A DNA stretch of 64,000 bases from a virus (Duplodnaviria > Heunggongvirae > Uroviricota > Caudoviricetes). Below are positions 5,607 through 57,439 of this stretch, in pieces. Made by a program: the position numbers and the translations under genes. The notes under the pieces were generated by a model. That model was given only the letters and a program-made list of their open reading frames with translations. It was not told the origin of the DNA and did no database searches. The number at the start of each line of letters is the position of its first letter. The stretch's first letter is position 1. Location of the stretch: the IMG/VR virus record IMGVR_UViG_3300021467_000082; one strand, given 5' to 3'.

Positions 5607-5933
5607 TCACCCCTTCATGGATTTCTCCATATCTTCTAATTCATAATAAAATTCGTTTTCCATGATTTCATCGCGTATTTGTTTTATCTTTTTTCTATGT
5701 TTGTGATATTCCAGCACATGTTTAATTACATATTTAAACTGTTCGGGGTACTGTGCCTTAAATGCTCGCATGTCAAAAGGGAGATCGTCGTCGCTTAGTT
5801 CTAATTCATTATCGTCGTTACCATTTTCTTTGAAAATAGAATCTTCCAGTTCTAGAGATTCTTCTGCAAATCCTATCACCCCTCCGATTTCTGCAGCCTC
5901 TAAATCTGGATTATTTCCATCAAATATACTCAT
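5607..5933 (-). CDS. acidic hypothetical protein
   Basis: ORF track, 108 aa, D/E-rich. Confidence 0.4.
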   Translation of the reverse strand: MSIFDGNNPDLEAAEIGGVIGFAEESLELEDSIFKENGNDDNELELSDDDLPFDMRAFKAQYPEQFKYVIKHVLEYHKHRKKIKQIRDEIMENEFYYELEDMEKSMKG

Positions 5934-6140
5934 AATTAACTCCTTAATAAAAAGGTTGTCTTGCTATCCGTTCGCCAATCCCGGCATCGCCCGGATTCTC
6001 AGGGTACTTAGATAGCAAGACAAAAAAGCCCTACCCGCCATAACCCACTCGATCTCGCTGCAATTTCGCATTTAGCGAGCAGCACTTCGTGCTTATTTTA
6101 CCATAAGCACGATGCATAACTACTTTAACTTTCATACAAA
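5934..6140. other. structured intergenic region with higher GC than its surroundings and multiple hairpins (possible ncRNA or 3' UTR)
   Basis: Long-range inverted repeat GTCTTGCTATC (5956-5966) / GATAGCAAGAC (6011-6021); hairpin GTGCTTAT-TTTACC-ATAAGCAC; hairpin CTCGCT...AGCGAG. Confidence 0.4.
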
Positions 6141-7511
6141 TTATTTTAGCACATTAGATAAATAATTTTTAGCTTCATCCAGTAATTTATTCTTTCTGTT
6201 TAAATTCTGATCTTCTATTACCAATCCCAAAAGATAATTCAACACGTGTCCAACAGTTGGACCAGGCTTTAAATTAAAATATTCAATTAAATCATCTCCG
6301 CTAATATCTAAGTCCTTAACACTTAGGGCCTTAGATTTCTCATAAACTTCTATAATATGCTCTTCAAACAGTTCCTGTCTATGCGATACTTCACTTAAAT
6401 TTCCACCATTTGCTAATCTATCAGCTCGACGCACTAGAAACAGTGGAAAATTTTCTAGATCTTTCAAATCTTTTTCTTTAATACCTACTTTTTTAATAAA
6501 GCGCCTTATCGCAGAATCTTTCCATTTCTTTGGATCATAATTATACATATGATTATAAACTAAATCACCAACTTCCTTAACCAATTTTGGTTCATATTTA
6601 AGTTTCCTTAAGAACCTTTTAACTATAGTTTTACCCTTAACTTCGTGATTGTAGAAAGTAATTCTACGTTCACCATTTTTCACTATCTCGGCTTGTGTGT
6701 AAGCTTTGCCGATATCATGAAATAAGGCAGCTAATTTTACTTTCAAATCAGGTACGGCATATTCACATGCTAAAACGCAATGCGTAAATACATCATACTT
6801 ATGATATTTCGGATTCTGTTTAACTCCTCTGCACATAGCCAATTCTGGCAATATAGTATATATTAATCCAGAATTCAACAATAATGTGAAATACTTGGAG
6901 GATTTCTTACTCATAACTATTTTATTAAATGCTTCCCTTATTCTATTAACAGTAGTATTATTAATATCCAAATTTTTTGAATTTGCAATTATAGCATGTA
7001 ATAATCTATTATTTAAATCATAACTTAATTCAGCGGCTAGTCCTACCGCTTCAATCATTACTACAGGATCTTTAACTATTACGTAGACAGGGTCATTAAT
7101 AATATCAATAACTTTATTTTTGATTGCTTCAGCCGCACCTGTCAAATCAATAATATTATGATTAGTTACTAATGGAATATACAATCCATGTATGGTGTAA
7201 ATTCTAGTTTGTGCATCCTCTTGCAAACTTATATAAGGATTAATATTACCGTTTAAATCCCTTGGTAATTCAAAAATTGCAATTGTATCTTCGTCTACGA
7301 CTTCTACTATACCTTGTTTCTTCCTAGATGTGACATTATTAAAATGCCTATTTAAATATTTACTAATAGACATCAAAGACAAATTTCTAACTAGGAATCT
7401 ATATTCCGTAGGCCGCTTTCGTCTAACTATATCTCTAGCACAACTACCAGAATAATAGACTTCAGCCTTAGTATCACGTATTAGTTTTCTTGCTATTTGT
7501 TTTATCTTCAT
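6141..7511 (-). CDS. HD-domain protein related to CCA-adding/poly(A) polymerase family enzymes, with a degenerate head motif (SGSCARD, no DxD)
   Basis: N-terminal YYSGSCARDIV resembles the GGxVRD head motif but lacks the catalytic DxD; central HD motif FTHC...LFHDIGKAYTQ. Confidence 0.6.
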   Translation of the reverse strand: MKIKQIARKLIRDTKAEVYYSGSCARDIVRRKRPTEYRFLVRNLSLMSISKYLNRHFNNVTSRKKQGIVEVVDEDTIAIFELPRDLNGNINPYISLQEDAQTRIYTIHGLYIPLVTNHNIIDLTGAAEAIKNKVIDIINDPVYVIVKDPVVMIEAVGLAAELSYDLNNRLLHAIIANSKNLDINNTTVNRIREAFNKIVMSKKSSKYFTLLLNSGLIYTILPELAMCRGVKQNPKYHKYDVFTHCVLACEYAVPDLKVKLAALFHDIGKAYTQAEIVKNGERRITFYNHEVKGKTIVKRFLRKLKYEPKLVKEVGDLVYNHMYNYDPKKWKDSAIRRFIKKVGIKEKDLKDLENFPLFLVRRADRLANGGNLSEVSHRQELFEEHIIEVYEKSKALSVKDLDISGDDLIEYFNLKPGPTVGHVLNYLLGLVIEDQNLNRKNKLLDEAKNYLSNVLK

Positions 7512-24895: not shown

Positions 24896-27800
24896 TTAAC
24901 ATCCTATTGCATTTTGTTGATTTGGAACAACCAGTTTATCAATATAATCGGATAACAATCTATACACATCTCTCATTTTCGTCGTTGTTAGAATATCCTT
25001 AACCTTCATCTTCTCGGCTTTGAGCCGCTCTAGCTTGTCTTCTATACTCTCAGTTTGTGTTTGCAGCAATCTTTTCAACATAAAGCTTGGCAGATCAGCT
25101 GCGCTGTCTTGCAGATGATCCAACAATCCAAATGGGCCAAGGCTAGCTCTAGTTGCAAAATAAATTCTATTTCTTTTTCTCACTATGAAGTTAATTATTT
25201 TACTTCCTCCTCTGGCCTTTGCTCTAGCATGAAATTCTTTTAGATTCTGTATACCCAGCTTTGCCGCTTCAGATTTAATCAAATTACACAACAACTCGCT
25301 AGGACGCCTGTCAAATCCCAGACTGACCATGGCATCTACGTCAGCTACACATATTGCATCAGTAGCTTCTTCTTGCAGAGATTTGATTCCATGCTTCTGC
25401 TTAAAAACAGTATTGCCAAGAAAATCCAGCAACAGCTCTAGATGAGCATGTTCTTCAGTTTCAGAATATGGTACATTTCTTTCTACTATTCTCATTAGAT
25501 TATATGCCAACGCAATTACTGGTCCAGTATGACTTTTAACACCAGTTGCTTTTCGTACCAACTCTGCATGTTCTTCATTAGTCGGTTTTGGAAAATAGCA
25601 TATATTGAAATCATCAAACGTCATTTCCTGTATCCTTGGAACTTTCTTACTATTCATTTTATTTATAGCATCAATACATACTTTATTTGGATTATGAAAC
25701 TCCTTTCTCAAAGCTTCTCTTGCCTCTGCAGTATGAAACGATGCCAAGAACAAAGTATCTCCATCAAAATCTAAACTTAAACTTACCAGACTATTTCCAC
25801 TTACTCGAATAACATATCTACACAGTGGATCATCGGTTATTTGCACTTTCTGGGGCCTAATAGACATAAATCCCAAGCAGGGAAATCTTTCTACCAATAC
25901 AATATCCCCAGTCTTCACGTTCAATTGCTGCGCCATATCTCTATGAATCTCAATCGTATTTGGCGGTAGATTATCAGCCAGCGCAGCTACTCCATGCGCA
26001 GAATAAGGATACCTTATAGCCATTCCATATGTGCTCAATTCTCCTCTCTTTGTTCCCATGCTCCTGGCAACTACCCTAAAATACTGCGAAACAGCCCTCA
26101 TAAGTTCATTTTGATTGATTATACTTTTGTCCTCTACAAATTCATGGGTTAGTTGAACAATCCTATTTACCAAAATTCCTACTTGGCTTAGTCCCCACTT
26201 TCCAGATGGATGCCGCCAGCATCTGCGCAGTAGAGCATTTGGAATAAATATTTGATTATATCGATAGACATCATATGTATTTGTATCAACATCATCATCT
26301 GGCAATCCCATAGAAAAATCTTCTTTATCCTGTTTATTAACAACAGCTTGAAAATAACAAGGCAGCCGCATTATAAACCCATCAGCAAAAAATTCTTCAT
26401 CTACAATTGTTCCTTTTATTTCATCAATTGTATGAAGAAAACCTCGGCGCAAATCAACGAATCTAATATCTTCAGCATCAATAATTGGATAGTTAGTGTC
26501 TACTTCTCCTTTAGCAGAATGTAGAATCCTAATTTCGTCTTTAATAATTTCTACTCCTTGTGCATGAGACATTACTTCTTTTATTATAGGGTTGCCAGGA
26601 CCGAACCTAGTTACTAGCGCTTTAATTTCAACATGACTAAATTTCAACCCAGAAGTTCGCAGCTCTCTATTATTCGTAATCCATGCCTTCTTATCGTCCC
26701 ATATTTGATCTTCTGGATCTTTGGTTACGCCCCAAAACATCTTACCTACAACTGCCTGGAATTCTCCACAATATGTTCTAATCATCCAAGAACCATCTTC
26801 TGGAAATCCCTTGGCTTTTAACGCAGCCTTAATTTTACCTTTAGTAACTATATATTCATCGTCTATAACTATTGGATCATCGCCTTCATTCAGATTATTA
26901 GCGAGCATTTCCAATAGTTGGCCAAAATTCTTTCTTTTATTAATAGACGTTCCAGATATGATAACATCGATAGGCACTTCCTCACCGGTTTTTGGATTAA
27001 TGGCTACACCAAGATCCATAAACTTAACAATGCCTTTATTTGCGTGCAGATTGGAAAATTTACTACCGTCTTTCAAAAACCTCTTTCCTTCAACAGTGAT
27101 AATCGTTGCTTTAATTGGCATATTATCCAATTCAACCACAACTCCATTAATGGTCAAGATTTTACCCTCATCACAGCGAAGATCCATTATAACTGGCTTG
27201 CCATCCGGAGAGAAACCTAACTTATCTCCGAATCTTATATTGTCGCCTTCCTCAACTAGGATCTTATCGCCATATATTGTAAACTTCTTATTTACTGTAT
27301 GCGATAGACTCAATAGTCGTTTATCAACCAAAATCTGATCTTCAAAAGTCAAAGGCGTATCCAAAATTGCAGTCGTAAGATTCCAACCCCTTCTTTCAAA
27401 CCCCTTGTCTATAAGTTTCTGCATACTCTTGGTTCTTATCCTAGGCAGCTCATCGCCTTGCATACACAGAGTGGAATATAGATTTCTTTGTGGATTGTGG
27501 AACATTCCAAATGGGGTTATCCTCCGCATATCTAGATCCAGCAGATAATTCTTATCAGCTAATACACCGTCGCTTAAGCCTATTGCAGTCCAGCCAAACT
27601 TTTGATAATATTTTCTATTTTTTTCTACTTGATACTCCAGCCTTTTATTTGGATCTTGAAGTCTATTAAATTCAGGATCTATTATGATGATCCTATGATT
27701 CATGGCCCATGTATTCATGTCAGTTTCATGAATTGGCATTGTATTTACTATTTCATCTATCAATCTCTGAGTACTCATTACCATATAACTGACTTGATTA

Positions 27801-28174
27801 TTCTTGAAGGACCTTGCAATTTTCGCTACCATTGGGGTTCCACTTTCAATATGTGGAAAGATTACATTTACATCGTCCAATAGTAGTTTTTCAATAACTT
27901 GCAAATAAGACAATTCTTCTTGCTTCTCTTCTAGCCAATACCTAGATACTGCTCTCTTAATCCCATTTCTAATTATGAATACCAGGCCATTTTCTATTAC
28001 AGGGAGTGGTATTTCCAAAGCTTTGCTTATTTCTGCATTTTCAAATATAAACCATAAACTATGCTCTACAATTTTAGTTTTTATGTTAGCCGTTACTTTT
28101 GCAAAAGTTTTGTTTCTGTTAAACTCATTCTTCACCCTTTCGGCCAAGATTATGGCCTCATCCATCGGCTCCAT
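24896..28174 (-). CDS. multisubunit RNA polymerase subunit: beta C-terminal half fused to beta-prime N-terminal half
   Basis: Beta motifs SKFSNLHANKGIV (GNKGV), SINKRKNFGQLLE (PSRMNxGQ-like), HVEIKALVTRFG (GEMEVWAL-like), followed by the beta-prime catalytic SLDFDGDTLF (NADFDGD). Confidence 0.8.
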   Translation of the reverse strand: MEPMDEAIILAERVKNEFNRNKTFAKVTANIKTKIVEHSLWFIFENAEISKALEIPLPVIENGLVFIIRNGIKRAVSRYWLEEKQEELSYLQVIEKLLLDDVNVIFPHIESGTPMVAKIARSFKNNQVSYMVMSTQRLIDEIVNTMPIHETDMNTWAMNHRIIIIDPEFNRLQDPNKRLEYQVEKNRKYYQKFGWTAIGLSDGVLADKNYLLDLDMRRITPFGMFHNPQRNLYSTLCMQGDELPRIRTKSMQKLIDKGFERRGWNLTTAILDTPLTFEDQILVDKRLLSLSHTVNKKFTIYGDKILVEEGDNIRFGDKLGFSPDGKPVIMDLRCDEGKILTINGVVVELDNMPIKATIITVEGKRFLKDGSKFSNLHANKGIVKFMDLGVAINPKTGEEVPIDVIISGTSINKRKNFGQLLEMLANNLNEGDDPIVIDDEYIVTKGKIKAALKAKGFPEDGSWMIRTYCGEFQAVVGKMFWGVTKDPEDQIWDDKKAWITNNRELRTSGLKFSHVEIKALVTRFGPGNPIIKEVMSHAQGVEIIKDEIRILHSAKGEVDTNYPIIDAEDIRFVDLRRGFLHTIDEIKGTIVDEEFFADGFIMRLPCYFQAVVNKQDKEDFSMGLPDDDVDTNTYDVYRYNQIFIPNALLRRCWRHPSGKWGLSQVGILVNRIVQLTHEFVEDKSIINQNELMRAVSQYFRVVARSMGTKRGELSTYGMAIRYPYSAHGVAALADNLPPNTIEIHRDMAQQLNVKTGDIVLVERFPCLGFMSIRPQKVQITDDPLCRYVIRVSGNSLVSLSLDFDGDTLFLASFHTAEAREALRKEFHNPNKVCIDAINKMNSKKVPRIQEMTFDDFNICYFPKPTNEEHAELVRKATGVKSHTGPVIALAYNLMRIVERNVPYSETEEHAHLELLLDFLGNTVFKQKHGIKSLQEEATDAICVADVDAMVSLGFDRRPSELLCNLIKSEAAKLGIQNLKEFHARAKARGGSKIINFIVRKRNRIYFATRASLGPFGLLDHLQDSAADLPSFMLKRLLQTQTESIEDKLERLKAEKMKVKDILTTTKMRDVYRLLSDYIDKLVVPNQQNAIGC

Positions 28175-28217: not shown

Positions 28218-29417
28218 CTATATAACCTCATACAAACGGGAAAGAGCCGCTTTATCAAATTTTCTCATTGTCCTAAATTCCTCCATAAACTTCTTTAGTT
28301 CACTGTCATTTAAACTATTTTTGTACCCTAATGTACGCAATAACATTTTGCTCACCTCTATGGGTATAAGATTGCTACATACAGCGGCACTGATTACTGT
28401 AAACACTGAATAGGCTTGGTGGTAATATTTCTCGAATAATTGAATATTATTGTTATGTTCTGATAATGGCACACGACGTAAATGTTTTACATCATCTATT
28501 ATATTTTCTACATTGGAATTATTTATGCACCTTACTATATAAATATGTTCAATAAGCCTATCAATCATAATTTTGCTAAGCGTAGTGTAGAATTTTGCTT
28601 TAAATGTTTGTATATTTTCACATATCCTTAACCTATCTACTCTAGAGAAATTGTAAGCGTCTGCAACTAGTAATCTGGGAGATCGTAAACGTTGCATAAA
28701 GACATTTACATCATTTGCATCGTTATCAGCATCAACAACTGGTACAAAATCAGCATCAACAACTGGTACAAAGCCATCACAAAGCTGAATACCTGGATGA
28801 ATAAGATATGTCGTTAATAACGACGCAATAAAAGCGTTATACTGTGCTTTTGTTATCATTGCATAATAGCGCCCGTACGGATAGTTAAGATTGTCATCAG
28901 CAAATTGTCTAACATTCCCATCAGAAATTAGAGATAGATAAGCAAAGTTCTTAAACGTATTGTTTAAACCATAGATCATTGCTACAAGCCATGCTAAAAA
29001 TTCATCGCGGCTTTTCAGTACATTGCTAGGCTCTTTTCTAATGAATACAATTGGTAAAACATATTTCTCCCTCTTTAGTAATATGTCTAATTCATGGCCA
29101 CATAATACACACGGTGCAGATAAATTGATTAAAAGTGCATCAAGTGATTGTAAACCATGTCTGCTACCGTTAAAAACATTCACGCCACTTAGTATAGCAT
29201 GCTTAACATTTCGTGCTAAATTAATATTTAACAACATGAATTTACGTTCCGGCTTCGGAGCCACCATTATAACGTCTAATAATATACATTGCATAGTAGG
29301 TTGTAAGAAAGCACTTATCACATAACCTGCTCTACCAGCTACAACTGAGCCTCGCTTTCTAGAACTTTTGGTTATATATATTCTATCCCCTAAATTAAGC
29401 ATATTGCACCTCACCAA
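28218..29417 (-). CDS. hypothetical protein containing an in-frame duplicated octapeptide (DFVPVVDA x2)
   Basis: ORF track, 399 aa; 24-bp tandem duplication at 28725-28772. Confidence 0.5.
   Translation of the reverse strand: MVRCNMLNLGDRIYITKSSRKRGSVVAGRAGYVISAFLQPTMQCILLDVIMVAPKPERKFMLLNINLARNVKHAILSGVNVFNGSRHGLQSLDALLINLSAPCVLCGHELDILLKREKYVLPIVFIRKEPSNVLKSRDEFLAWLVAMIYGLNNTFKNFAYLSLISDGNVRQFADDNLNYPYGRYYAMITKAQYNAFIASLLTTYLIHPGIQLCDGFVPVVDADFVPVVDADNDANDVNVFMQRLRSPRLLVADAYNFSRVDRLRICENIQTFKAKFYTTLSKIMIDRLIEHIYIVRCINNSNVENIIDDVKHLRRVPLSEHNNNIQLFEKYYHQAYSVFTVISAAVCSNLIPIEVSKMLLRTLGYKNSLNDSELKKFMEEFRTMRKFDKAALSRLYEVI
28725..28772. repeat. 24-bp perfect tandem duplication (ATCAGCATCAACAACTGGTACAAA x2) inside a CDS
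   Basis: Seen directly in sequence. Confidence 0.85.
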
Positions 29418-34396: not shown

Positions 34397-35677
34397 TTAA
34401 CCTAGTGATCTAACAAGCGATTCCTCATAACGCAAAGCTTTCTTAACACCAAGCAATCGCGTCAAACGTCTCCTTGTACCAGATAGAAAACTATTGCTAT
34501 TTCCCCAATTGTAATAGTACGTAGATCTATTACCATGTAATGCCCATTCTTCATACATATTGCTGCTTATAAGTTCATCTGTTCCATTCATTATGAGATA
34601 ATCAAAAAGAGTTATTGGATTTAAACCGACATAATCATCTGAATACACATGAGGTTTTCTAGAATAGTTAGAATACAAAAAATTTGTCGATTTACTAAGA
34701 GAACCTATCAATGCTCTGACCGAACGCCAAACTTTCTTAGCATATACAACGTCTGATTCATTTATTGCGCCCCTTACATCTTCTTCACTTATATTAATAG
34801 TTTGCAATAATTTTTCATAACCGTACTTCCTATACGCAAAAGCCGTCCCTAAGCTGGCCAGGCCTAACACCATAGAGACAAAAATTGGAGATTTAAGCCA
34901 CCAACAGCTTAGACTACGATATTCAATTCCATATGGCGTAGGCCTAAAACACCCGGCTTTGCCATACTTGGATCTTCGCCTTTTAGCGGCTGGCGAATTA
35001 TCAAATGGTAACGTCAATAAATTAACGAAGAAATCCAGAGACTTAACCCATCTAATATGCTCTTTTTCACTTGTGATCATCTCACGTTGCCTAGAATAGT
35101 AGGGATCAGCGAGTCCGCCACCATATTCAATACCTACTAAACCTATATGAATGTGGCCTCCCGCGTATCTATATGGATGTTTTTCCGCGTTCATCTCTGG
35201 CGTATTCACAGTGAGCGTATAGGCATTGTAATCTGGCATACACCCAAAGATCTTTGCGTCGTCATGGGCTTGATCCAATATTCGCTTTTGTACTTTAACA
35301 GACGGCTTTAGCGTAATTCTATTTCCTTCTATCATATCAGCAGCTGTAGTTAAAATACGTTTTGTTCTCATGATAAAGTACACTCTACAATAAGTCGGCG
35401 TGATCCCAAATTCAGCTTGAATGCCATCAAAATATAATTTACCAATCGCCTCTCCTACACCTAACCACCTGTCATCAGGTTCTTGCTTTATAATAAGTGG
35501 TTTAGTTTTATGGGGAAAAAATTTATCTGAGTTTAGAATTGTGCCTTTCTTATTTGCTACGAAAAACTCAGGGTCCGCCCCAAAATAGAGAGTCGGTTTT
35601 AGCCCACAGCTTAATTTTCTTTTCATACCGGTTGTTATTTCAGACAACTTAATCCGCTTCATCACTGGACCTCCCAT
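34397..35677 (-). CDS. amidoligase paralog C
   Basis: GADPEFFVAN, GGHIHIGLVG. Confidence 0.6.
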   Translation of the reverse strand: MGGPVMKRIKLSEITTGMKRKLSCGLKPTLYFGADPEFFVANKKGTILNSDKFFPHKTKPLIIKQEPDDRWLGVGEAIGKLYFDGIQAEFGITPTYCRVYFIMRTKRILTTAADMIEGNRITLKPSVKVQKRILDQAHDDAKIFGCMPDYNAYTLTVNTPEMNAEKHPYRYAGGHIHIGLVGIEYGGGLADPYYSRQREMITSEKEHIRWVKSLDFFVNLLTLPFDNSPAAKRRRSKYGKAGCFRPTPYGIEYRSLSCWWLKSPIFVSMVLGLASLGTAFAYRKYGYEKLLQTINISEEDVRGAINESDVVYAKKVWRSVRALIGSLSKSTNFLYSNYSRKPHVYSDDYVGLNPITLFDYLIMNGTDELISSNMYEEWALHGNRSTYYYNWGNSNSFLSGTRRRLTRLLGVKKALRYEESLVRSLG

Positions 35678-36395
35678 TTATATATAAGTATTTTTCCACA
35701 ATCCCTCTGTACTTTTCTGTTGTAAAATCAGCTTCGTAATCAACGGCAAAATATGACACGTCATTAATGTTTAACTCTTTATATATGAATGTACCATTTT
35801 TATAAACAGCATCTAACTCATGCCAATCTATTCCTCTCTCTTGCAACATATTAAGCATATCAGAGACCTTTTTATTTTGGAGTTCTTTTTGAGAGAAAAC
35901 AGACCTGGCTAACATATGAACAGAATTTCTTATCCAGTCTTTTTGCCGCCATATAAAATAATTACAGACCTCCTCTTTTGGAATGTTAAACGCACGGCAA
36001 TCGAATACTGCATAATTAATTTCAAACATTTGTGATAGCCACCTAGAAAAGTTTACAGACATCATAGCAGCGGCAACAGATACGAGTTTTTGTAGGTTAT
36101 AATCGAACCAAGCTGAAGTGTTCAATTGATCGAAATCTGTCAGTAGAATTGACACTTCATCTGATTGAATATAGGCACATTTCGCACCTTGTATTTCCTC
36201 ACATACGTTTCCAGCAGCATAAACCATTCCCTTTATAAATGTTTCATCAAAAGGTTTCTGCATACACTTACATAATGTGTGGAAAGCTTTTCCATCTAAT
36301 CGTAAAATAACTGGAGTTCTACGAGTCAGTTTTACTCTGTATCTGCTCTCGTAGTTTTCTTTCATCCTATCTCCAATAGACGTTCTATTCTTCAT
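35649..36395 (-). CDS. Thg1-like protein (tRNA-His guanylyltransferase/3'-5' polymerase family)
   Basis: ILRLDGKAFH and IQSDEVSILL match Thg1 VVRLDGRNFH / GQSDEYSFVF; 29-nt overlap with the upstream amidoligase. Confidence 0.75.
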   Translation of the reverse strand: MKNRTSIGDRMKENYESRYRVKLTRRTPVILRLDGKAFHTLCKCMQKPFDETFIKGMVYAAGNVCEEIQGAKCAYIQSDEVSILLTDFDQLNTSAWFDYNLQKLVSVAAAMMSVNFSRWLSQMFEINYAVFDCRAFNIPKEEVCNYFIWRQKDWIRNSVHMLARSVFSQKELQNKKVSDMLNMLQERGIDWHELDAVYKNGTFIYKELNINDVSYFAVDYEADFTTEKYRGIVEKYLYINGRSSDEAD

Positions 36396-36480
36396 TTTTC
36401 TCTCCTATTTTTCAAGGACCGCTATGTTTACTATTAGATCTTAAGCCTTTATAAGATTTTTATTCTTCATAGCACCCTCC

Positions 36481-37200
36481 TCAATTAATATTTATATTTC
36501 TCTCTAATTGTTGTAGATTATAATATCTTATCAAGATATTAGTAACATATCTTAGTTCATAACTTTTACCTTTTGGCTTTGTCAATCCGGTGTGATACCT
36601 ATTAAGAGCCACAACTATATTTCCTTTTGCCTCTTTAATATACTTACTTAATATTTTCACACCGCATTTTATATTATTATCTATCCAAAACAATTTATTT
36701 TTCACGCTTACTCCATTATCTTTCAAAATAGGATGTTCTTTCCACGTAGAAAATCTTACCTGCATCAAACCTACAGCTCCAGCTTTGCTTTGTACCAACG
36801 GCCTAAAGTTCGATTCTTCATAAATTAGGGAGACCACTAATAGTGGATCAACATTTTGCTCTTCACATACTTCCAATATAGTCTTTGCTATCAGTTTACG
36901 TAGAGGTTCAGATAATTTGGGCTGTAAATGTTCAATTATACCACTTAATTGATCCACACTGATATCGCATTTATTATCATTAACCTCTATAACCTTAACA
37001 GGTTGCACAGATTGCTTCGAGCTCAAACATTCCTGCAATTTGTCATTTAACTCTTCGTTGATATTAGTAAGTTGTTGGACAGTTTTACTATATTTTGTAA
37101 TATTTGTTACAGCAGTATACCATGCAAAACCTTGTGCAATAATTAAAACTAAAACAAAAGCGACTAATATATACTTATACAATTTTGACATTTTTATCAC
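36481..37200 (-). CDS. lytic transglycosylase (SLT domain) with an N-terminal membrane anchor
   Basis: LLVVSLIYEESNFRPLVQSKAGAVGLMQV (ES...AxGLMQ) plus an N-terminal TM helix. Confidence 0.8.
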   Translation of the reverse strand: MIKMSKLYKYILVAFVLVLIIAQGFAWYTAVTNITKYSKTVQQLTNINEELNDKLQECLSSKQSVQPVKVIEVNDNKCDISVDQLSGIIEHLQPKLSEPLRKLIAKTILEVCEEQNVDPLLVVSLIYEESNFRPLVQSKAGAVGLMQVRFSTWKEHPILKDNGVSVKNKLFWIDNNIKCGVKILSKYIKEAKGNIVVALNRYHTGLTKPKGKSYELRYVTNILIRYYNLQQLERNININ

Positions 37201-37205
37201 CTTTA

Positions 37206-37451
37206 TTATGGATCTACTCTCTCCACTACCTTATCTATGAAATTTTGTAATGCTCGTGTAGCGTGAATAGAATCCACTACTATATTCTTTTTAGTGGAAA
37301 ATAGAGGTACTTTCGTTTTCTTGTTATATTTTACTGCAACCACTTTGTTTTCATCAGAGTCATGTTTAAATACTGCAACGATATCATTGTCAGATATTGA
37401 AAGAGCCTCAAAATCAAAACGTGATAGATCAACAGTGTTAATGGTTTCCAT
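37206..37451 (-). CDS. hypothetical small protein
   Basis: ORF track, 81 aa. Confidence 0.4.
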   Translation of the reverse strand: METINTVDLSRFDFEALSISDNDIVAVFKHDSDENKVVAVKYNKKTKVPLFSTKKNIVVDSIHATRALQNFIDKVVERVDP

Positions 37452-38829
37452 TTTGTTCCTCCTTTTCCAATTCGTTATAAGCTTGTAGTATTAAGTCATG
37501 GAGTTGACTTTTGTAATCAGAAATAGATTCATCCATTATTTTATCAGCAACCATTCTTTTTATTTTACCAACTAGAGGAGATGGTTTGATATTGCATAAT
37601 TTCATTATCAAATTACCATCTATTAAATCGACCAACGGTCTGTTATATGCTAATTGTTTCTGCCTTTCAATAATCTCATTTATTTTTTCTAATTTTCGAT
37701 CAAAGCTACCATAATGCATGAATTCTTCGCCTCGCGAAAACTCATCTGCCCACGCCACCTCTACTAATGTATCAAAGTATGGACTTTCTGCTATTCTTGC
37801 TATTTTAGATGGGCGCATATTTAATATATGATTGAACTTCATGTGATTTCTTACGGCGAATAATATACGATCTTTTTCCATATTTGAGAATTTTAATCGA
37901 GTTAATATATGCTCGGCTATATCTGTACCTGCCACCTCATGTCTATAATAGTGAACACCCTTCTCATCTTCGCTAAAGGTAACCCCTTTACCAATATCAT
38001 GAAGCAATATTGCCATCAGCGTAGTGAAATCATTTGTTCTAGCTATCTCCAAGCACTTTATAACATGATCAAATACCGTTGTTCCTTCTGGATGATGTCT
38101 CATATTATGTTTGTAGTATTTTAAAATAGACACTTCAGGAATGATTTTGGACAATAGACCAAAATAATCGCTCAATTTAATAAAATTAGTAAATTCTTTT
38201 ACTCCATATTTGCTGGCCTTATAAAACTCTCCCCTAATTCTTTCCGGGGCTATTTTAATTATCTTACTATTATATCTCCTTATGGCCATTCTAGTTTTAT
38301 TTTCGATGTTGAATCCAAGCGCTGCAAACCTTATTGCTCTAAGCATTCTTAAATAATCTTCTGAGAATCTCTCTGACGGATCTCCTACCGTTCTTAGTAT
38401 CTTATTTTCAAGATCTTCCTTACCACCGACCTTATCTATAATATTGCCATGTTTATCCATAGCCATGGCATTTATAGTGAAGTCCCGACGCATAATATCT
38501 TCATCTAACGATACGCCTATCTTAACAGACTCTGGCCTCCTCCCATCCAGATATTTTCCATCAGATCTAAACTGTGCGATTTCAAAATACATGTCTTTAT
38601 AACATATTAAGCATATGCCAAAATCTTTTGATTGGCCTATATTATAAGTATCGAAAATCTCTTCCAAAATTTTGAGCGGGCAATTTGTAGTGATATCAAC
38701 GTCTTCAGCTCTGCGCCCGCTCAAAATATCCCTTACAGTGCCGCCTACTATATACGCTTCATATCCTAATGCTTCTATTTCACTTAGCAGCTTCATAGCT
38801 ACAAGTACATTTTTAGACAACATTGCCAT
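37438..38829 (-). CDS. cca: CCA-adding enzyme (tRNA nucleotidyltransferase, class II with HD domain)
   Basis: Head IVGGTVRDILSG...EDVDITT, neck RLRAIRFAA, HD motif LLHDIGK. Confidence 0.85.
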   Translation of the reverse strand: MAMLSKNVLVAMKLLSEIEALGYEAYIVGGTVRDILSGRRAEDVDITTNCPLKILEEIFDTYNIGQSKDFGICLICYKDMYFEIAQFRSDGKYLDGRRPESVKIGVSLDEDIMRRDFTINAMAMDKHGNIIDKVGGKEDLENKILRTVGDPSERFSEDYLRMLRAIRFAALGFNIENKTRMAIRRYNSKIIKIAPERIRGEFYKASKYGVKEFTNFIKLSDYFGLLSKIIPEVSILKYYKHNMRHHPEGTTVFDHVIKCLEIARTNDFTTLMAILLHDIGKGVTFSEDEKGVHYYRHEVAGTDIAEHILTRLKFSNMEKDRILFAVRNHMKFNHILNMRPSKIARIAESPYFDTLVEVAWADEFSRGEEFMHYGSFDRKLEKINEIIERQKQLAYNRPLVDLIDGNLIMKLCNIKPSPLVGKIKRMVADKIMDESISDYKSQLHDLILQAYNELEKEEQNGNH

Positions 38830-38842
38830 ACCCCAATTATAC

Positions 38843-40177
38843 TTAGTCTTTCAAATTTATAATAGGCTTTATTACATCAACAATTTCAGCTGTAGGCGCA
38901 ATGGCTTCTTTAATGATGTTTGAATCTTTGTATGCGTTTTTAGTTTCATCAGCAGGTATTGAAGAAGCAAATATACCTGCCGCTCTCATTCTTTCAGCCG
39001 CCTTTTCTACATCCACTAATTCTTTTGCCTTGTTTCGAGATAACATACGCCCAGCACCATGAGGAGCCGAATAATTCCATTCTTGGTTAGCTAACCCCTT
39101 GCATATTAATGTTCCATCTTCCATGTTAAGTGGAATTAGGATGAATTTAGTATATGCTGATATTGCGCCTTTACGAATTATAAAATCGGAAAAATCGATG
39201 TAATTATGAACAGATTCTATTTCATAAGGTTGAGGATCATGTAGACCCATAACGTTTTCAGATACGATCTTACCAATCAACCTTCGATTTTCCTTGGCAT
39301 ATACAGTAGTGAAAATCATGTCATGCAAATAACCATATGCGTCTTCCCCTTCCAAATACTCAAGGCCTTTAGCAACTTTGTTATCCATCTCCAAATAAGC
39401 TCTCAACTGTTTTATGGCTTCTGGTATTAACTTACGCTGGGCTTTTGTAGTGTGTGTACGTTTAATTTCTTCTAGCCCCGCTTTAAATTTTTCTTGCTTC
39501 TTCTCATTCATCTTCCTAATTGGAGTACCCTGCCAATATTCACATATCTTTTTACCGAAATTTCTAGATCCACTATGGATTGTCAGCCAAAGAGATCCAG
39601 TGCTATCTCTTCCTACCTCAATGAAATGGTTTCCGCCTCCAACGGTGCCTAAACTATTAACTGCTCGCCCAGCGTCGATTCCAATGATCTCACATTTTGA
39701 TATGAACCAATCGTAATCATAGGAAATTGGTTCCACATTCGTAGAAAAAGTCTTATTAAATTTTGACCAAAAGGTTCTGGCAATCTTTCTAACTTCTTCC
39801 CAGGGGAAATCTTTCTCCATATTAATTATTGGATTTTCATGTATTTCGTATCCGAAGGGCACTTTTGCTCTGATAGAAATGTCCAACTGCTCTAAATTTT
39901 TTATATCTCTTATAGGAAGTTTTCTCGCATAGACACCGCACCCAATATCTACTCCAACAACATTCGGCACTAGTTTGGTCGTCAGAGGCATAGTAAATCC
40001 AATAACAGCCCCTTTTCCAGCATGACAGTCCGGCATAATTGCCACTGGGTTGGTAAAGGCAGGATTATTAAGAAAGGACACTATCTGTGATAATGTAGTT
40101 TCATCTACATTGTCTATCATAATTTTGGCCTTAGTATATTTACCTACCATTTCAAACACGGCACTGTCCTCCATCAA
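38843..40177 (-). CDS. rtcB: RtcB RNA ligase (3'-phosphate/5'-OH)
   Basis: MPDCHAGKGAVIGF, GGGNHFIEV, HSGSRNFG, SAPHGAGRM. Confidence 0.9.
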   Translation of the reverse strand: MMEDSAVFEMVGKYTKAKIMIDNVDETTLSQIVSFLNNPAFTNPVAIMPDCHAGKGAVIGFTMPLTTKLVPNVVGVDIGCGVYARKLPIRDIKNLEQLDISIRAKVPFGYEIHENPIINMEKDFPWEEVRKIARTFWSKFNKTFSTNVEPISYDYDWFISKCEIIGIDAGRAVNSLGTVGGGNHFIEVGRDSTGSLWLTIHSGSRNFGKKICEYWQGTPIRKMNEKKQEKFKAGLEEIKRTHTTKAQRKLIPEAIKQLRAYLEMDNKVAKGLEYLEGEDAYGYLHDMIFTTVYAKENRRLIGKIVSENVMGLHDPQPYEIESVHNYIDFSDFIIRKGAISAYTKFILIPLNMEDGTLICKGLANQEWNYSAPHGAGRMLSRNKAKELVDVEKAAERMRAAGIFASSIPADETKNAYKDSNIIKEAIAPTAEIVDVIKPIINLKD

Positions 40178-54310: not shown

Positions 54311-54383
54311 AAGAAGCGCAGCAGCATGTTTATGTATGATTTCCTCCTACTCATTTTGCGCCCCGTATTGGGCGCAGTTTTAA

Positions 54384-54551
54384 TTAGCCTTTTGATCTGA
54401 AAATAACCAGAAGTATGGCAATTCCAACCAAGGCTACCCAAAGAGGCCAAAGTTTAACCAACAGAATAAAATCATCCACCGTAGCAACAATAACAACTTT
54501 GTACCAAGGCAAATTCCAAATAGCTTCTAAAACTTCTCCTAATGTTGTCAT
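54384..54551 (-). CDS. small (~55 aa) hydrophobic peptide, not in the ORF track
   Basis: Manual read of the minus strand: SD AAGGAGGG 8 nt upstream of ATG (revcomp of 54549-54551); MTTLGEVLEAIWNLPWYKVVIVATV... Confidence 0.4.
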   Translation of the reverse strand: MTTLGEVLEAIWNLPWYKVVIVATVDDFILLVKLWPLWVALVGIAILLVIFRSKG

Positions 54552-55093
54552 AATAAACCCTCCTTATTTTTTATTGATTACAAATGTAATTCCTTTGTGA
54601 TAACACATACTTACACCACATAATCCCTAAGTTCATGAAATTCTTTTCAATTTTTGATTTGATATGTAGTACGCACTTCATCATTACAGATAGTATTAAT
54701 AATCTTCTATATTTATATGAATATTTAATCATTTCAATAATTTATATCACCACCTCTCTTATACTCATCAAAACGGGCCAGCGCCGCGCCGGGGCTAGAA
54801 CAAAAGTGTCAAAACCGCAATAAATATATATAACACAACCAACAAATCCTACTAATATATAAGTAATAAACATACCATCTGAATTAACCAGCAATTTTGA
54901 TTAGTTATTTCATCATGATCCAGTTATTATCCATGCGACGCTTCTATTAATCATCACTAGCTCAATTTACCATAGCGAATTGACTTCCTAATTGGTACTA
55001 CAAATTGATACAAATCACCCAATGAATTGACAATTAATTGATGATAAACTATTGATTTTATTAATTAATAGTTGAATCGTTGCAGTTCATTTT

Positions 55094-55117
55094 ATTGGTA
55101 TTTTATTGGTATTTACG
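55094..55117. repeat. 11-bp tandem repeat (ATTTTATTGGT x2)
   Basis: Seen in sequence. Confidence 0.6.
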
Positions 55118-55208
55118 TTATTATATTATGTTATGCTTAATTATATCATACTAACTGGTCATTGTTCAATAATTCATAATATTTTCAATAGTTTATTGCA
55201 TCAATCGT

Positions 55209-55357
55209 CGATGAATTGTCATTGATTATTAAGATGCATAGTTGATATAGTTATATATATTTGATGAATTGTACAATATTTCTATTAATTTTAATATGTT
55301 ATGGCACTATGACTCAACTAATTTCAATATATTATAGCATTATATCTTGATGAATTG
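55209..55357. repeat. three dispersed ~19-bp direct repeats (TGATGAATTGTnnnnnATT) at about 55209, 55262 and 55339
   Basis: Seen in sequence. Confidence 0.6.
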
Positions 55358-55384
55358 TATGATATTATATTGTGTCTTTATATT

Positions 55385-55420
55385 GTTTCAATATTTTCAA
55401 TATTTTCAATATTTTCAATA
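55385..55420. repeat. 9-bp tandem repeat (CAATATTTT x3.5); the TATTTTCAATAGTTTATTG element also occurs at 55182-55200
   Basis: Seen in sequence. Confidence 0.8.
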
Positions 55421-55486
55421 GTTTATTGATGATCTTATGTAATGTTTTATGTAATACTTTATTATATTTTTTTATTAAATTGTGTA

Positions 55487-55550
55487 GTCGATCGATCACA
55501 CTTTCGACGTCGAAAATTTTTGAAATCGATTTCACACTTCGCGTCGATCG
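55487..55550. repeat. palindromic ATCGATCGA-containing elements (TCGATCGATCACACTTTCGACGTCGAAA ... CGCGTCGATCGAT); similar TCGATCGATTGATCGATCGA at 56250-56280
   Basis: Seen in sequence. Confidence 0.6.
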
Positions 55551-55588
55551 ATAAAATAAATAGATAATTCAATAACTTATTATATCAA

Positions 55589-55702
55589 TCAAATAGGCAA
55601 AATACCACAAATAATCGCAAGAATATTAATAACTATTAATGCCAATAGCGTAATAAAATACCAATCACTGAATAATTCTCTAAATTTTGCTCCAAAGTCC
55701 AT
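55589..55702 (-). CDS. tiny (37 aa) hydrophobic peptide with a strong SD, not in the ORF track
   Basis: Minus strand GGAGGATTGACA-ATG; MDFGAKFRELFSDWYFITLLALIVINILAIICGILPI. Confidence 0.35.
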   Translation of the reverse strand: MDFGAKFRELFSDWYFITLLALIVINILAIICGILPI

Positions 55703-55714
55703 TGTCAATCCTCC

Positions 55715-55750
55715 AATTATATAATAATATCAAATTATATAATAATATCA
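55715..55750. repeat. 18-bp tandem repeat TTATATAATAATATCAA x2 (TATAAT-like -10 elements on the minus strand); a related copy lies at 55855-55875
   Basis: Seen in sequence; each copy sits immediately upstream of a tiny peptide gene. Confidence 0.6.
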
Positions 55751-55755
55751 ATTAA

Positions 55756-55842
55756 TTAAATTGACCTGAATAGGGTAAAGAGCGCCAGTCCTATTAAGAT
55801 CCATAATATAACGGCAATCCAATCGTCAAACATATCCTTCAT
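55756..55842 (-). CDS. tiny (28 aa) hydrophobic peptide with an SD, not in the ORF track
   Basis: Minus strand GGAGACCAAA-ATG; MKDMFDDWIAVILWILIGLALFTLFRSI. Confidence 0.3.
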   Translation of the reverse strand: MKDMFDDWIAVILWILIGLALFTLFRSI

Positions 55843-55919
55843 TTTGGTCTCCAATTGTATAATAATATTAATATGTTATAGCACATCCAATGAACACAAA
55901 GCATACAAAAATAATTGCA

Positions 55920-56189
55920 CTATTCTCTCTCCATCTCATTTTGTTCCATTAGCATTAATTGTTTAAATGCTGCTCTTTCAGAACAAGATTCTTTTGTAGC
56001 CGCCGACCATTCCTCTCGGCAAACTTTAAAGAATTTCAACCAGTTAGCTTTGAGCCGGTCAAACTTAAACGCCACAACTAATGCGAAATGCAGTGCTGCC
56101 CAATAGAAAATAGTTAATATGATTAATAGCTTTATTAACAATTCCACCATATAGGATCTACTAAATTCTTTAAACCATAACCAATTCAT
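55920..56189 (-). CDS. small membrane protein
   Basis: ORF track, 89 aa; SD GGAGGT 7 nt upstream; hydrophobic segment LIKLLIILTIFYWAALHFALVVAF. Confidence 0.5.
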   Translation of the reverse strand: MNWLWFKEFSRSYMVELLIKLLIILTIFYWAALHFALVVAFKFDRLKANWLKFFKVCREEWSAATKESCSERAAFKQLMLMEQNEMERE

Positions 56190-56369
56190 TTTTCTACCTC
56201 CAATATCAAATTGTTAATAAATTCAATACCTTATTATTAATTTGCCATCGATCAATACATCGATCGATTGATCGATCGACAATAGGCCAAAAAATTAAAT
56301 ATAATAATTTCAGTATGTTAGTTTACTTTTCCCTATATAGGGTATATAAAATTTAATACCACCAAATGT

Positions 56370-56490
56370 CTATAAACTCAATGTATAAACTTAATATATA
56401 AACTTAGTATATATACTGAGTTTATAAACTCAGTGTATAAATTTAGTATACAAATTCAGTTCATATACTCAGTTCACAAACTGAGTATAT
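56370..56490. repeat. iteron-like array: about 8 imperfect 13-bp direct repeats (CTCAGTGTATAAA / CTGAGTTTATAAA / TTAGTATATA...)
   Basis: Seen in sequence, immediately upstream of the only plus-strand gene and at the strand-switch point. Confidence 0.65.
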
Positions 56491-56591
56491 AAATTTACCA
56501 TTTTTTTCATGTTTATCACTTTTTAGTTTACAAACTCTATTTTTTGTGCTATAATATATAAAGGTACAAGTAAATCTGTGCCAAATTCAAT

Positions 56592-56597
56592 AGGAGG
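56592..56597 (+). promoter_or_regulatory. Shine-Dalgarno AGGAGG for the 56606 plus-strand gene
   Basis: AGGAGG 8 nt upstream of ATG. Confidence 0.7.
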
Positions 56598-56605
56598 TAT
56601 AGATT

Positions 56606-57076
56606 ATGATATTCGTATTTTACAATGAAGAATATGATGCGTACAAATTTATGTTTAATACTAATGGCGTATTAAATACGGTGGCTAATGAGAAATTAGT
56701 TAGTGTCATTGAAGGGGATAGGAATGATTTAAAAACTATTAAAAAGCTTCTCCAAACTCCTAGCGGCTGGGCGCCGGCTAGTGAACAGGTAAAAAAATTC
56801 ATATTTAATAGAGAAATGGATGTAACTGTTACAATTGCTATGTACAAAGATAGAATGTTCATTTCTTTATCTGATATTGCACAAACAAAACGTTACTTGC
56901 GTAGGGAATTGTATTATGATGTTAAGACGGATTATATTGAATATTGTCTTTCATCGCATAAATTTGCCGAAATGATTAATTCCTTGGAGAGATTTCATAT
57001 TAAGCACTCCGTTTATCAATTAAATGATGAATCAAGGCAAATTTTAGCCGGTTTTGAGGAGTACAAAAAACCTTAA
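56606..57076 (+). CDS. hypothetical protein; the only convincing plus-strand gene in the window
   Basis: ORF track, 156 aa; strong RBS; low-GC codon usage like the rest of the window. Confidence 0.65.
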   Translation: MIFVFYNEEYDAYKFMFNTNGVLNTVANEKLVSVIEGDRNDLKTIKKLLQTPSGWAPASEQVKKFIFNREMDVTVTIAMYKDRMFISLSDIAQTKRYLRRELYYDVKTDYIEYCLSSHKFAEMINSLERFHIKHSVYQLNDESRQILAGFEEYKKP

Positions 57077-57199
57077 TTTTGTTATAAAAATTAGCCAATT
57101 TCACATCAATTTTTTGAATTTTGTTTCCAAAGAATAGTGTATTCGACATGAAATCAGCCGTTTTGTTACGTAAATTTAAACGGGTTAAGCGTAAATTTT

Positions 57200-57439
57200 T
57201 CATTTTGTTTTTACCATATTTTCCAGGACAAATTCCAACGTTTTATCCGCCAAGACGGTCATTTCAGATAATGTCTTGGATAAATAGGATGTCCATTCAT
57301 CTATTTGTTCTTTTGGTATTTCTATATCATTTTGAACTATAGCCCCGGCCATGGCAATCTTATTCCCTATTTGACGCCATGTTTTAAACAGCCTTTCCCT
57401 CATTACAGTCTTCTCATCTAATTCCTTATGTATTTCCAT
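57200..57439 (-). CDS. hypothetical protein
   Basis: ORF track, 79 aa. Confidence 0.4.
   Translation of the reverse strand: MEIHKELDEKTVMRERLFKTWRQIGNKIAMAGAIVQNDIEIPKEQIDEWTSYLSKTLSEMTVLADKTLEFVLENMVKTK

Follow-up and report, generated by a model that had tools for sequence, protein, structure and literature searches.

A ∼2.2-kb AT-rich repeat hub (positions 54384-56605) lies between a long array of minus-strand genes and the only plus-strand gene of a 64,000-nucleotide stretch of DNA, hereafter the window, from a virus of the Caudoviricetes (IMG/VR record IMGVR_UViG_3300021467_000082). We propose that this hub is an autoregulated switch, in which the 156-amino acid product of the plus-strand gene would bind DNA at its own iterated operator array within a divergent promoter region; we put the probability of this reading at about 45%, slightly below even. 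The pair of protein and array is a new variant of a known design, the autoregulated binder with iterated sites, on an orphan protein without a recognizable fold. To our knowledge, almost nothing is known about the control regions of large uncultivated phages.

The tandem array and its orphan gene

Directly upstream of the plus-strand gene, ten contiguous 12-bp near-palindromes of the consensus AGTnTATAnACT follow each other with a 13-bp period, and an eleventh site, AGTTTACAAACT, sits on the −35 hexamer of the gene's promoter. The original prediction had noted about eight imperfect 13-bp repeats here; Tandem Repeats Finder confirms the array with 9.5 copies at 56371-56493 (score 106-163), and the individual 12-mers fit the consensus at 8-10 of 10 specified positions. 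The motif is strongly concentrated at this place. Nine of the 13 matches with at most one mismatch in the window fall within the 170-bp array region (4.2 are expected in the whole window), as do 10 of the 11 position-weight-matrix matches of at least 12 bits inside the array itself, and no second cluster of the kind seen in the relative L026 was found in the window. Across 11 near-identical strains, the array differs by one single-nucleotide polymorphism, located at its edge, and its copy number is constant.

Relatives were recovered by exact-protein look-ups and by family searches of metagenomic contigs (designated here by L numbers) and fall into three groups. The first comprises eleven contigs that are ∼99.5-99.9% identical to the window. 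Contigs of the second group carry orthologues of the 156-residue protein, with identities to the window protein of 64% (L012), 59% (L013), 37% (L027), ∼25% (L018, L017, L028, and L029, and likewise L015 and L014), and 24% (L026 and L025). The third group consists of distant lineages found via the single-strand DNA-binding protein (SSB), which is 54% identical in L023 and L024 and 51% identical in L030. No close relatives of the window were found in searches of GenBank phages, IMG/VR, and GTDB genomes, and a protein-pattern scan of Joint Genome Institute (JGI) contigs found nothing.

Gene order around the hub is kept in the near-identical contigs and in those with an orthologue of the 156-residue protein. 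From left to right, the shared layout comprises a leader, a GC island, an AT-rich spacer, a distal TCGA element, tiny peptide genes together with an 89-residue protein gene, a proximal TCGATCGA pair with a ∼60-nucleotide block, the array, a sigma-70-type promoter, and the opposite-strand gene. In every lineage whose available sequence is long enough, a tandem array lies directly upstream of the orthologous gene, and the units of these arrays are 11-12-bp (near-)palindromes throughout. Their sequence, however, changes from lineage to lineage: AGTTATATAACT in L012 (13-14-bp period, 7.5 copies), AGwwTATAwwCT in L013 (14 bp, 8.9 copies), AATAGTACTATT in L018, L028, and L029 (∼17 bp, 4-6 copies), and TTACTAATAAT in L026 (13 bp, 14.2 copies, with nine more sites clustered 1.3 kb away). 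Conservation in relatives, which the original prediction had named as its test, thus holds for the position and architecture of the repeats but not for their sequence. Proteins that are 59-64% identical to that of the window accompany AGT.TATA.ACT-type sites, whereas those with 24-27% identity accompany unrelated sites. Despite this turnover of the motif, the flanking non-coding blocks and the promoter, located 30 bp from the array, are conserved, the latter as TTTACA-17-TGnTATAAT in six of seven lineages.

Three features of the arrays indicate how they might be bound. The (near-)palindromic units found everywhere indicate a dimeric binder. The period varies between 13 and 17 bp, which points to side-by-side cooperative binding and not to helical phasing or intrinsic curvature. 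Within the available DNA, each lineage's motif is confined to its own array, which therefore argues for a local function and not for a genome-wide regulator.

The 156-residue protein is an orphan. Its family comprises four clusters among 1.84 billion representatives in an exhaustive profile search, and the protein finds no match in Pfam, PHROGs, PADLOC, or the PDB sequences. An AlphaFold2 model built from six sequences (pLDDT 90.8, all five models in agreement) consists of mixed β-α repeats. When this model was compared with viral models by Foldseek, nothing was found at E ≤ 0.001; weak matches below significance agree on the GIY-YIG, T5orf172, and Bro-N classes, which is a lead only and not evidence. 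The protein is ∼25% identical between lineages whose neighboring proteins are 37-90% identical, and judged by these identities, its gene is by far the fastest evolving of the neighborhood. The private palindromic array, the fast-evolving gene, the site on the −35 hexamer, and a motif turnover that tracks the protein together suggest a cognate, autoregulating pair.

Both array and gene are absent from L023 and L024, which keep the two flanks, the TCGATCGA boxes, the AT-rich spacer, and the tiny peptide genes, indicating that the module is accessory. At the same junction of L030 (7306-7623), a non-homologous 73-residue protein is encoded on the opposite strand and has its own array (22 bp, 3.6 copies), with four GTGAGCCCAC-containing repeats between the −10 element and the Shine-Dalgarno (SD) sequence of the gene. 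The same design therefore recurs in non-homologous form. A ribbon-helix-helix assignment for the 73-residue protein was discarded, as the likeness of its N terminus is by eye only and searches of Pfam and the PDB sequences returned nothing.

We picture the hub as consisting of two layers. The clade-wide layer would be a junction element of two TCGATCGA pairs, an AT-rich repeat spacer, and tiny membrane-peptide genes with their own extended −10-type promoter and 5′ untranslated region (UTR) motifs. To this, one subclade would have added an accessory, self-contained module of gene and array. Host RNA polymerase would transcribe the plus-strand gene from its sigma-70-type promoter, and we infer that the product binds as dimers to the ten palindromes and to the eleventh site on its own −35 hexamer, forming a cooperative protein–DNA filament that would shut off the promoter. 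Such a filament would lie between divergent promoters and might in this way also gate the long leftward transcription unit at its start, or insulate it. Protein and site specificity would co-evolve, with a private protein–array pair in each lineage, as one would expect of an immunity- or incompatibility-type determinant. A precedent for this kind of occupancy is the MetJ/CopG type of repressor, of which dimers bind adjacent short palindromes cooperatively and the number of tandem boxes tunes repression. However, these repressors are ribbon-helix-helix proteins that bind 2-5 boxes, each 8 bp long, whereas the fold modeled here is not ribbon-helix-helix and the boxes number 10-14, each of 12 bp.

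Several points weigh against an autoregulated switch. Besides matching no Pfam, PHROG, or PDB entry, the 156-residue protein shows neither a helix-turn-helix nor a ribbon-helix-helix fold, and in the window it is not basic (pI 6.8; 8.5-9.5 in most orthologues). The co-variation of motif and protein is confounded by phylogeny, with five protein lineages only, and in L015 the array beside the retained gene is degenerate, with 2-3 sites. A simple operator does not need as many as 10-14 contiguous sites, a number more typical of centromeres and iteron origins. No leftward promoter was identified, and the block beside the array is without conserved sigma-70 hexamers. The binder could also be another protein, for example the product of a conserved open reading frame (ORF) for a basic 67-residue protein that runs convergently into the 3′ end of the plus-strand gene. 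By tblastn, this ORF is found in L015, L018, and L028 (41-57 of 67 residues, 44-61% identity), and it has no Pfam match. No terminator-like site lies between the two genes in their overlap (57000-57076), and this convergent arrangement suggests transcriptional interference or antisense control.

A bolder extension of the switch, which we regard as tentative and clearly less probable, is that the 156-residue protein founds an undescribed DNA-binding class. It would have a new fold that polymerizes on tandem 12-bp palindromes as a lineage-private lock and key, giving each lineage its own immunity- or incompatibility-type switch (or origin selection), next to the clade-wide paired TCGATCGA boxes as a second cis-element, for a conserved factor. 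The modeled fold is possibly a remote derivative of the GIY-YIG/T5orf172 class. In any case, the locus offers a concrete protein–DNA pair, an orphan protein together with a single array, of which at least five lineages provide natural specificity variants. If the proposed binding is true, it would define a new DNA-binding fold and a set of orthogonal protein–operator pairs and would mark the start of a ∼55-kb transcription unit.

Conserved elements and small genes of the junction

The hub has a GC content of 0.28 and holds 13 of the 37 tandem-repeat rows of the window in 3.5% of its sequence. All of the repeat families listed in the original prediction are present and non-random, at or near the places it had given them; the features of the hub are collected in Table 1. 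The 11-bp tandem ATTTTATTGGT (2.4 copies, 100% match) extends from 55089 to 55114 and not from 55094 to 55117. The 19-bp repeat GATGAATTGT has three exact copies, at 55210, 55263, and 55349, and no other exact copy in the 64 kb, the 9-bp tandem TTTCAATAT has 4.3 copies (55386-55424), and the TCGATCGA palindromes start at 55488, 55544, 56260, and 56272. True non-coding DNA in the hub amounts to ∼1.04 kb (54552-55588) and 0.42 kb (56190-56605). The conserved promoter, the array upstream of the gene, and the non-coding blocks conserved across lineages support the earlier description of the region as a regulatory center. Two or three extended −10 motifs make its description as a battery of promoters plausible, but promoter-like matches overall (27) are not enriched over shuffled sequences (23.9 expected).

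Table 1. Features of the hub and of the adjoining plus-strand gene, from left to right
Feature	Position	Strand	Basis or remark
55-aa single-pass membrane peptide gene	54384-54551	-	ORF and SD AAGGAGGG
Conserved non-coding leader/promoter region of the next gene (∼230 nt)	54552-54775	-	∼70-75% nucleotide identity to L018, L015
GC-rich island GGGCCAGCGCCGCGCCGGGGCTAG, then conserved GAACAAAAGTGTCAAAACCGC	54775-54819		Kept in three lineages
AT-rich segment of lineage-specific repeats, GC 0.20	55000-55486		Repeat and stability scans
11-bp tandems of the AT-rich segment	55020-55041, 55089-55114
GATGAATTGT, three copies, of the AT-rich segment	See text
9-bp tandem of the AT-rich segment	55386-55424
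12-bp tandem of the AT-rich segment	55435-55462
Two extended −10 promoter-like motifs, TGcCATAAC and TGcTATAAT, each followed by ATATTrAAATTA	55283-55341	-	Repeat families; TGnTATAAT match at 55331
Distal TCGA element: TCGATCGA ... TTCGACGTCGAA ... AAATCGATTT ... TCGATCGA, then conserved tail ATAAAATAAATAGATAATTCAATAACTTAT	55487-55585		Alignment
37-aa membrane peptide gene	55589-55702	-	ORF and SD GGAGG
18-bp tandem AATTATATAATAATATCA, 2.1 copies, directly upstream of the SD of the 37-aa gene	55715-55751	-	Repeat scan
28-aa membrane peptide gene	55756-55842	-	ORF and SD GGAG
Third TATAATAATAT copy and TGcTATAAC	55849-55885	-	Promoter or 5′ UTR element ahead of a tiny peptide gene, conserved
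89-aa membrane protein gene, which opens the long leftward array	55920-56189	-	One hydrophobic segment
Proximal TCGA cluster: three 12-bp units CATCGATCrAyw, including TCGATCGA at 56260 and 56272	56245-56281		Kept in L012, L018, L015, L028
Nearly invariant ∼60-nt non-coding block AAAAATTAAATnnAATAATTTCArTATGTTArTwTACTTTTC...TATAGG	56290-56351		Five aligned copies, four lineages
Ten contiguous 12-bp near-palindromes AGTnTATAnACT, 13-bp period	56367-56495		Repeat and motif scans
Eleventh site AGTTTACAAACT, on the −35 hexamer	56525-56536		Motif scan
Sigma-70-type promoter TTTACA-17-TGcTATAAT of the plus-strand gene	56527-56555	+	11/12 hexamer positions and TG extension
156-aa orphan protein gene, proposed array binder	56606-57076	+	Only plus-strand gene of the window
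67-aa basic ORF, pI 10.8, convergent with the 156-aa gene, 77-nt overlap at its 3′ end	57000-57203	-	Alternative candidate binder

Four of the five TCGATCGA copies in the window lie in the hub, with 0.4-0.6 expected per 64 kb, and across lineages the box is restricted to the junction in the available DNA, usually as two pairs and in L026 as one. L023 and L024, which are without array and gene, still have TCGATCGA at the junction; L030, without an orthologous gene, has CGATCGA-type boxes there instead. The distal TCGA element contains seven TCGA in 68 bp and is largely invariant across four lineages (the window, L018, L015, and L026). A structured RNA was considered for this element and rejected. 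A strong hairpin is found in L026 only, whereas the CACACTT arms of the window and of L018 repeat in direct and not in inverted orientation, indicating an element at the DNA level.

The ∼60-nucleotide block between the proximal boxes and the array occurs once in the window and is duplicated in L015. It was found in two further JGI contigs only and in no IMG/VR or GTDB record, and its alignment reveals neither conserved sigma-70 hexamers nor an ORF. In L015, a ∼140-bp segment with the TCGA pair and this block is duplicated in tandem; together with the repeats of the AT-rich spacer, this duplication occupies 5660-5992 and 6810-7290. The non-coding blocks of the hub are more conserved than the neighboring proteins, and hidden coding potential was dismissed for them, as the frames are broken or not common to the lineages. 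The TCGATCGA boxes and the ∼60-nucleotide block represent further cis-elements of the junction.

The original prediction had listed three tiny, SD-led hydrophobic peptide genes, all of which look real, each with an SD sequence and one hydrophobic segment; the 89-residue membrane protein gene was missing from its list. The ORFs of 28, 37, 55, and 89 codons share a GGAG-type SD and one hydrophobic helix each (Kyte-Doolittle maxima of 2.3-3.0), and SD-led hydrophobic mini-ORFs occur at the equivalent place in all lineages. The 55-residue peptide has a homologue in L029 (53% identity, E = 3e-17), and the 37-residue peptide resembles a 25-residue peptide of L018 and L028 (FIT..LL..V motif) as well as its 28-residue paralogue. 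Identity of the 89-residue protein is 64% to L018 and 37.5-38.6% to L015 and L014. A toxin- or holin-like nature, as suggested earlier, agrees with the SD-led ORFs and their single hydrophobic helix but finds no backing in a described family: the small ORFs of the hub match nothing in Pfam, PHROG, PADLOC, or Rfam.

An 18-bp repeat had been said to precede each of the three tiny genes. It does so for the 37- and 28-residue peptide genes but not for the 55-residue one. The tandem upstream of the 37-residue peptide gene contains a sigma-70-like match, TTGATA-16-TATTAT, which suggests that it is a promoter or 5′ UTR element. The third copy (91% match, 55849-55871) lies upstream of the 28-residue peptide gene, and ATTATAACATATTAATATTATTATATAATTTGGAG is conserved in L018, L015, L028, and L029. 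Two leftward motifs in the AT-rich segment (55283-55341) are paralogous to the motif upstream of the 28-residue peptide gene and are putative promoters.

At the left end, the leader terminates in a near-palindrome, ATTACAAATGTAAT (54577-54590). The adjoining GC island (54775-54800) was considered as an intrinsic terminator and rejected, as the terminator scan does not call it and its RNA folds no better than shuffled sequences (z = −0.3 to +1.3). Immediately after the stop codon of the 55-residue peptide gene, a GC-rich hairpin (54356-54385) carries a T run on the plus strand only; its sequence is that of a canonical terminator, which would serve rightward (antisense) transcription and not the leftward genes.

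The AT-rich segment that follows has the lowest GC content of the window. Its sequence is not conserved, yet repeats occupy the equivalent spot in L015 (an 82-bp unit, 4.4 copies, 95% identity), L018, L029, and L026 (a 19-bp unit, 9 copies), and repeat copy number varies even among close strains. A physical genome end or terminal repeat in the hub was considered and rejected: the contigs of 11 near-identical strains do not end at one common point but anywhere from 54551 to 56232, and three of them continue through the region. In other lineages, contig breaks coincide with long tandem arrays. The scattered breaks are accounted for by AT-rich repeats that disrupt assembly, and a physical end is not needed to explain them. 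Even if no reading of the hub holds, the region remains useful as a landmark, being a junction rich in repeats at which short-read assemblies break.

Possible alternatives: replication origin, centromere, or repeats without function

A replication origin, which the original prediction had put forward as a candidate, is the most probable of the alternatives, and we consider it rather unlikely. It could take two forms. In the first, the array and the 156-residue protein would be an iteron–initiator pair that melts the adjacent AT-rich DNA. In the second, more plausible form, the clade-wide TCGATCGA boxes would bind a conserved initiator and the segment 55379-55478 would serve as the unwinding element, with priming possibly by transcripts from the leftward promoters, as in T4 and T7-type origins. 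The physical properties of the hub are consistent with such a role. Of the ten 100-bp duplexes with the lowest stability in the window, four lie in the hub, among them the two least stable, which start at 55379 (55379-55478, in the AT-rich segment) and 56343, so that easily melted DNA adjoins regularly spaced repeats that are far above chance. Furthermore, the hub directly follows a gene block that includes the SSB gene, and the TCGATCGA pairs are found at the junction in every lineage, including those without an array.

Evidence from nucleotide skew is equivocal. In all lineages, the SSB block has a lower sense-strand GC skew than the blocks on its two sides, the direction expected for forks diverging from the hub. 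However, the cumulative GC skew, for which an inflection had been predicted, has no turning point within the window and shows a change of slope only. The difference between blocks is not significant at four-fold degenerate sites (p = 0.12-0.53), indicating that the bulk step largely reflects protein composition, and the step is also present in a relative without the array.

Phage and plasmid origins offer a partial parallel. Phage λ iterons are palindromic and bound by dimers. Like λ O–ori, the iteron plasmids, and T4 oriE, the hub combines regularly spaced repeats with adjoining, easily melted AT-rich DNA and a nearby strand switch. T4 oriE contains evenly spaced 12-nucleotide repeats, and strand switches are found close to the active origins of T4, but a link between these repeats and origin activity is not established and their role is itself unproven (PMC3016281). 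In contrast to iteron origins, no recognizable initiator is encoded here: the hub contains no DnaA boxes, and the adjacent 156-residue protein matches no initiator family or fold. The absence of array and gene from L023 and L024 and their replacement by an unrelated module in L030, with flanks kept, show the module to be dispensable in relatives, which argues against the array as an essential origin. If an origin lies here, the TCGA boxes and the AT-rich spacer are more plausible candidates than the 13-bp array. Repeats and easily melted DNA are thus present, and an origin is neither shown nor refuted; if true, it would be one of the earliest to be located in a genome of this type.

The hub is also not the only candidate. 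It had been described as the only strand switch, which holds inside the window, but a second divergent junction lies ∼2 kb past its right end. This second hub, contained in L003 (10170-11187, corresponding to ∼65.6-66.6 kb in window coordinates), is a truly divergent junction with its own repeats. It comprises ∼12 copies of a AATTGATCAATT-type 12-bp palindrome with periods of 18-32 bp, then a GC-richer structured stretch, and finally a TTTACA-17-TATAAT-type promoter before plus-strand genes. Its design matches that of the first hub, and as a candidate for an origin it is equally good; its palindrome AATTGATCAATT does not cluster in the first hub.

That the array is a centromere-like partition or positioning site, coated by the 156-residue protein and segregating a plasmid-like or carrier-state genome, is improbable. 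The geometry fits well: the arrays consist of 4-14 contiguous short repeats, in direct or inverted order, upstream of a small gene and reaching its promoter, and L026 has two clusters of the same site. This matches the parS heptads of pSM19035, of which at least 4 contiguous repeats are required (PMC9499535), and tubC, which invariably precedes tubR and extends over part of its promoter, including in the Clostridium botulinum prophage c-st (PMC6009700). With the TubR–tubC system the hub would share an array upstream of the binder gene, a promoter that is partly covered and repressed, occurrence in a phage genome, and an array that is split into blocks in some systems (PMC6009700). TubR, however, has a winged-helix fold, and its gene is transcribed together with that of the TubZ GTPase. 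The ω (ParB) protein of pSM19035 is a 71-residue ribbon-helix-helix protein with a ParA partner. Its system likewise places the gene of a small dimeric protein beside contiguous short direct or inverted sites in promoter regions, is autoregulated, and uses the heptads both as promoter operators and as parS centromeres. Unlike ω, the protein considered here has 156 residues and an unrelated α/β model, with no partner ATPase gene nearby, and in place of 7-bp heptads there are 12-bp palindromes with a 13-17-bp period.

The partition site that the original prediction had entertained lacks a motor gene. No ParA-, ParM-, or TubZ-type gene is present in the operon; the 156-residue protein gene is monocistronic and meets convergent genes without a family match. 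Its model has neither a ribbon-helix-helix nor a winged-helix fold, and the 64 kb examined show no sign of a plasmid or lysogenic lifestyle.

It is just as improbable that the repeats lack a dedicated function, being slippage products in an AT-rich spacer left by a moron insertion, with an orphan gene whose role has nothing to do with them: the AT-rich part does show copy-number polymorphism and lineage-specific turnover, promoter-like matches are not enriched over shuffles, and the module is dispensable in a relative, but five protein lineages have an array of palindromic 11-12-bp units at this one position even though the motif itself has turned over completely, the array hardly varies among close strains, and it has a counterpart at the unrelated gene of L030. 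Moreover, the TCGA boxes and the ∼60-nucleotide block are conserved far beyond neutral expectation.

Genome context of the hub

The window looks like a piece of a large, uncharacterized phage-like genome. Nearly all of its genes lie on the minus strand and include those for a helicase, RuvB, a transglycosylase, and phiEco32-type COOH-NH2 ligases and glutamine amidotransferases. The hub separates two co-oriented gene blocks, a left one with a GC content of 0.35 and a right one with 0.43, the latter holding the divergent SSB gene. Across the hub (∼54.4 kb versus ∼57.1 kb), GC at four-fold degenerate sites changes from ∼0.30 to 0.45, whereas both blocks are at ∼0.44-0.45 in L023 and L024. The left block of the window lineage seems to have drifted toward AT, or the two blocks differ in history.

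A 1092-residue protein (24896-28174, minus strand) combines Rpb2 domain 6 and Rpb1 domain 2 in one chain and is a fused β/β′-type two-barrel RNA polymerase, a kind known from some phages. The genome probably has promoters of its own type, which may be the reason why the conserved non-coding blocks of the hub lack sigma-70 hexamers.

An Rfam scan of the window finds three tRNAs only and nothing credible in the hub. These tRNA genes (Thr, Pro, and Trp) are accompanied by a tRNA-repair set that comprises RtcB ligase, two CCA-adding enzymes, a Thg1-like guanylyltransferase, and a Ro-like RNA-binding protein (306-1364 and 35649-40177 for tRNA and repair genes together), which suggests a counter to host tRNA-cleaving defenses. 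Finally, the coding region of a 399-residue protein gene contains a perfect 24-bp tandem duplication (two copies of ATCAGCATCAACAACTGGTACAAA, 28725-28772).

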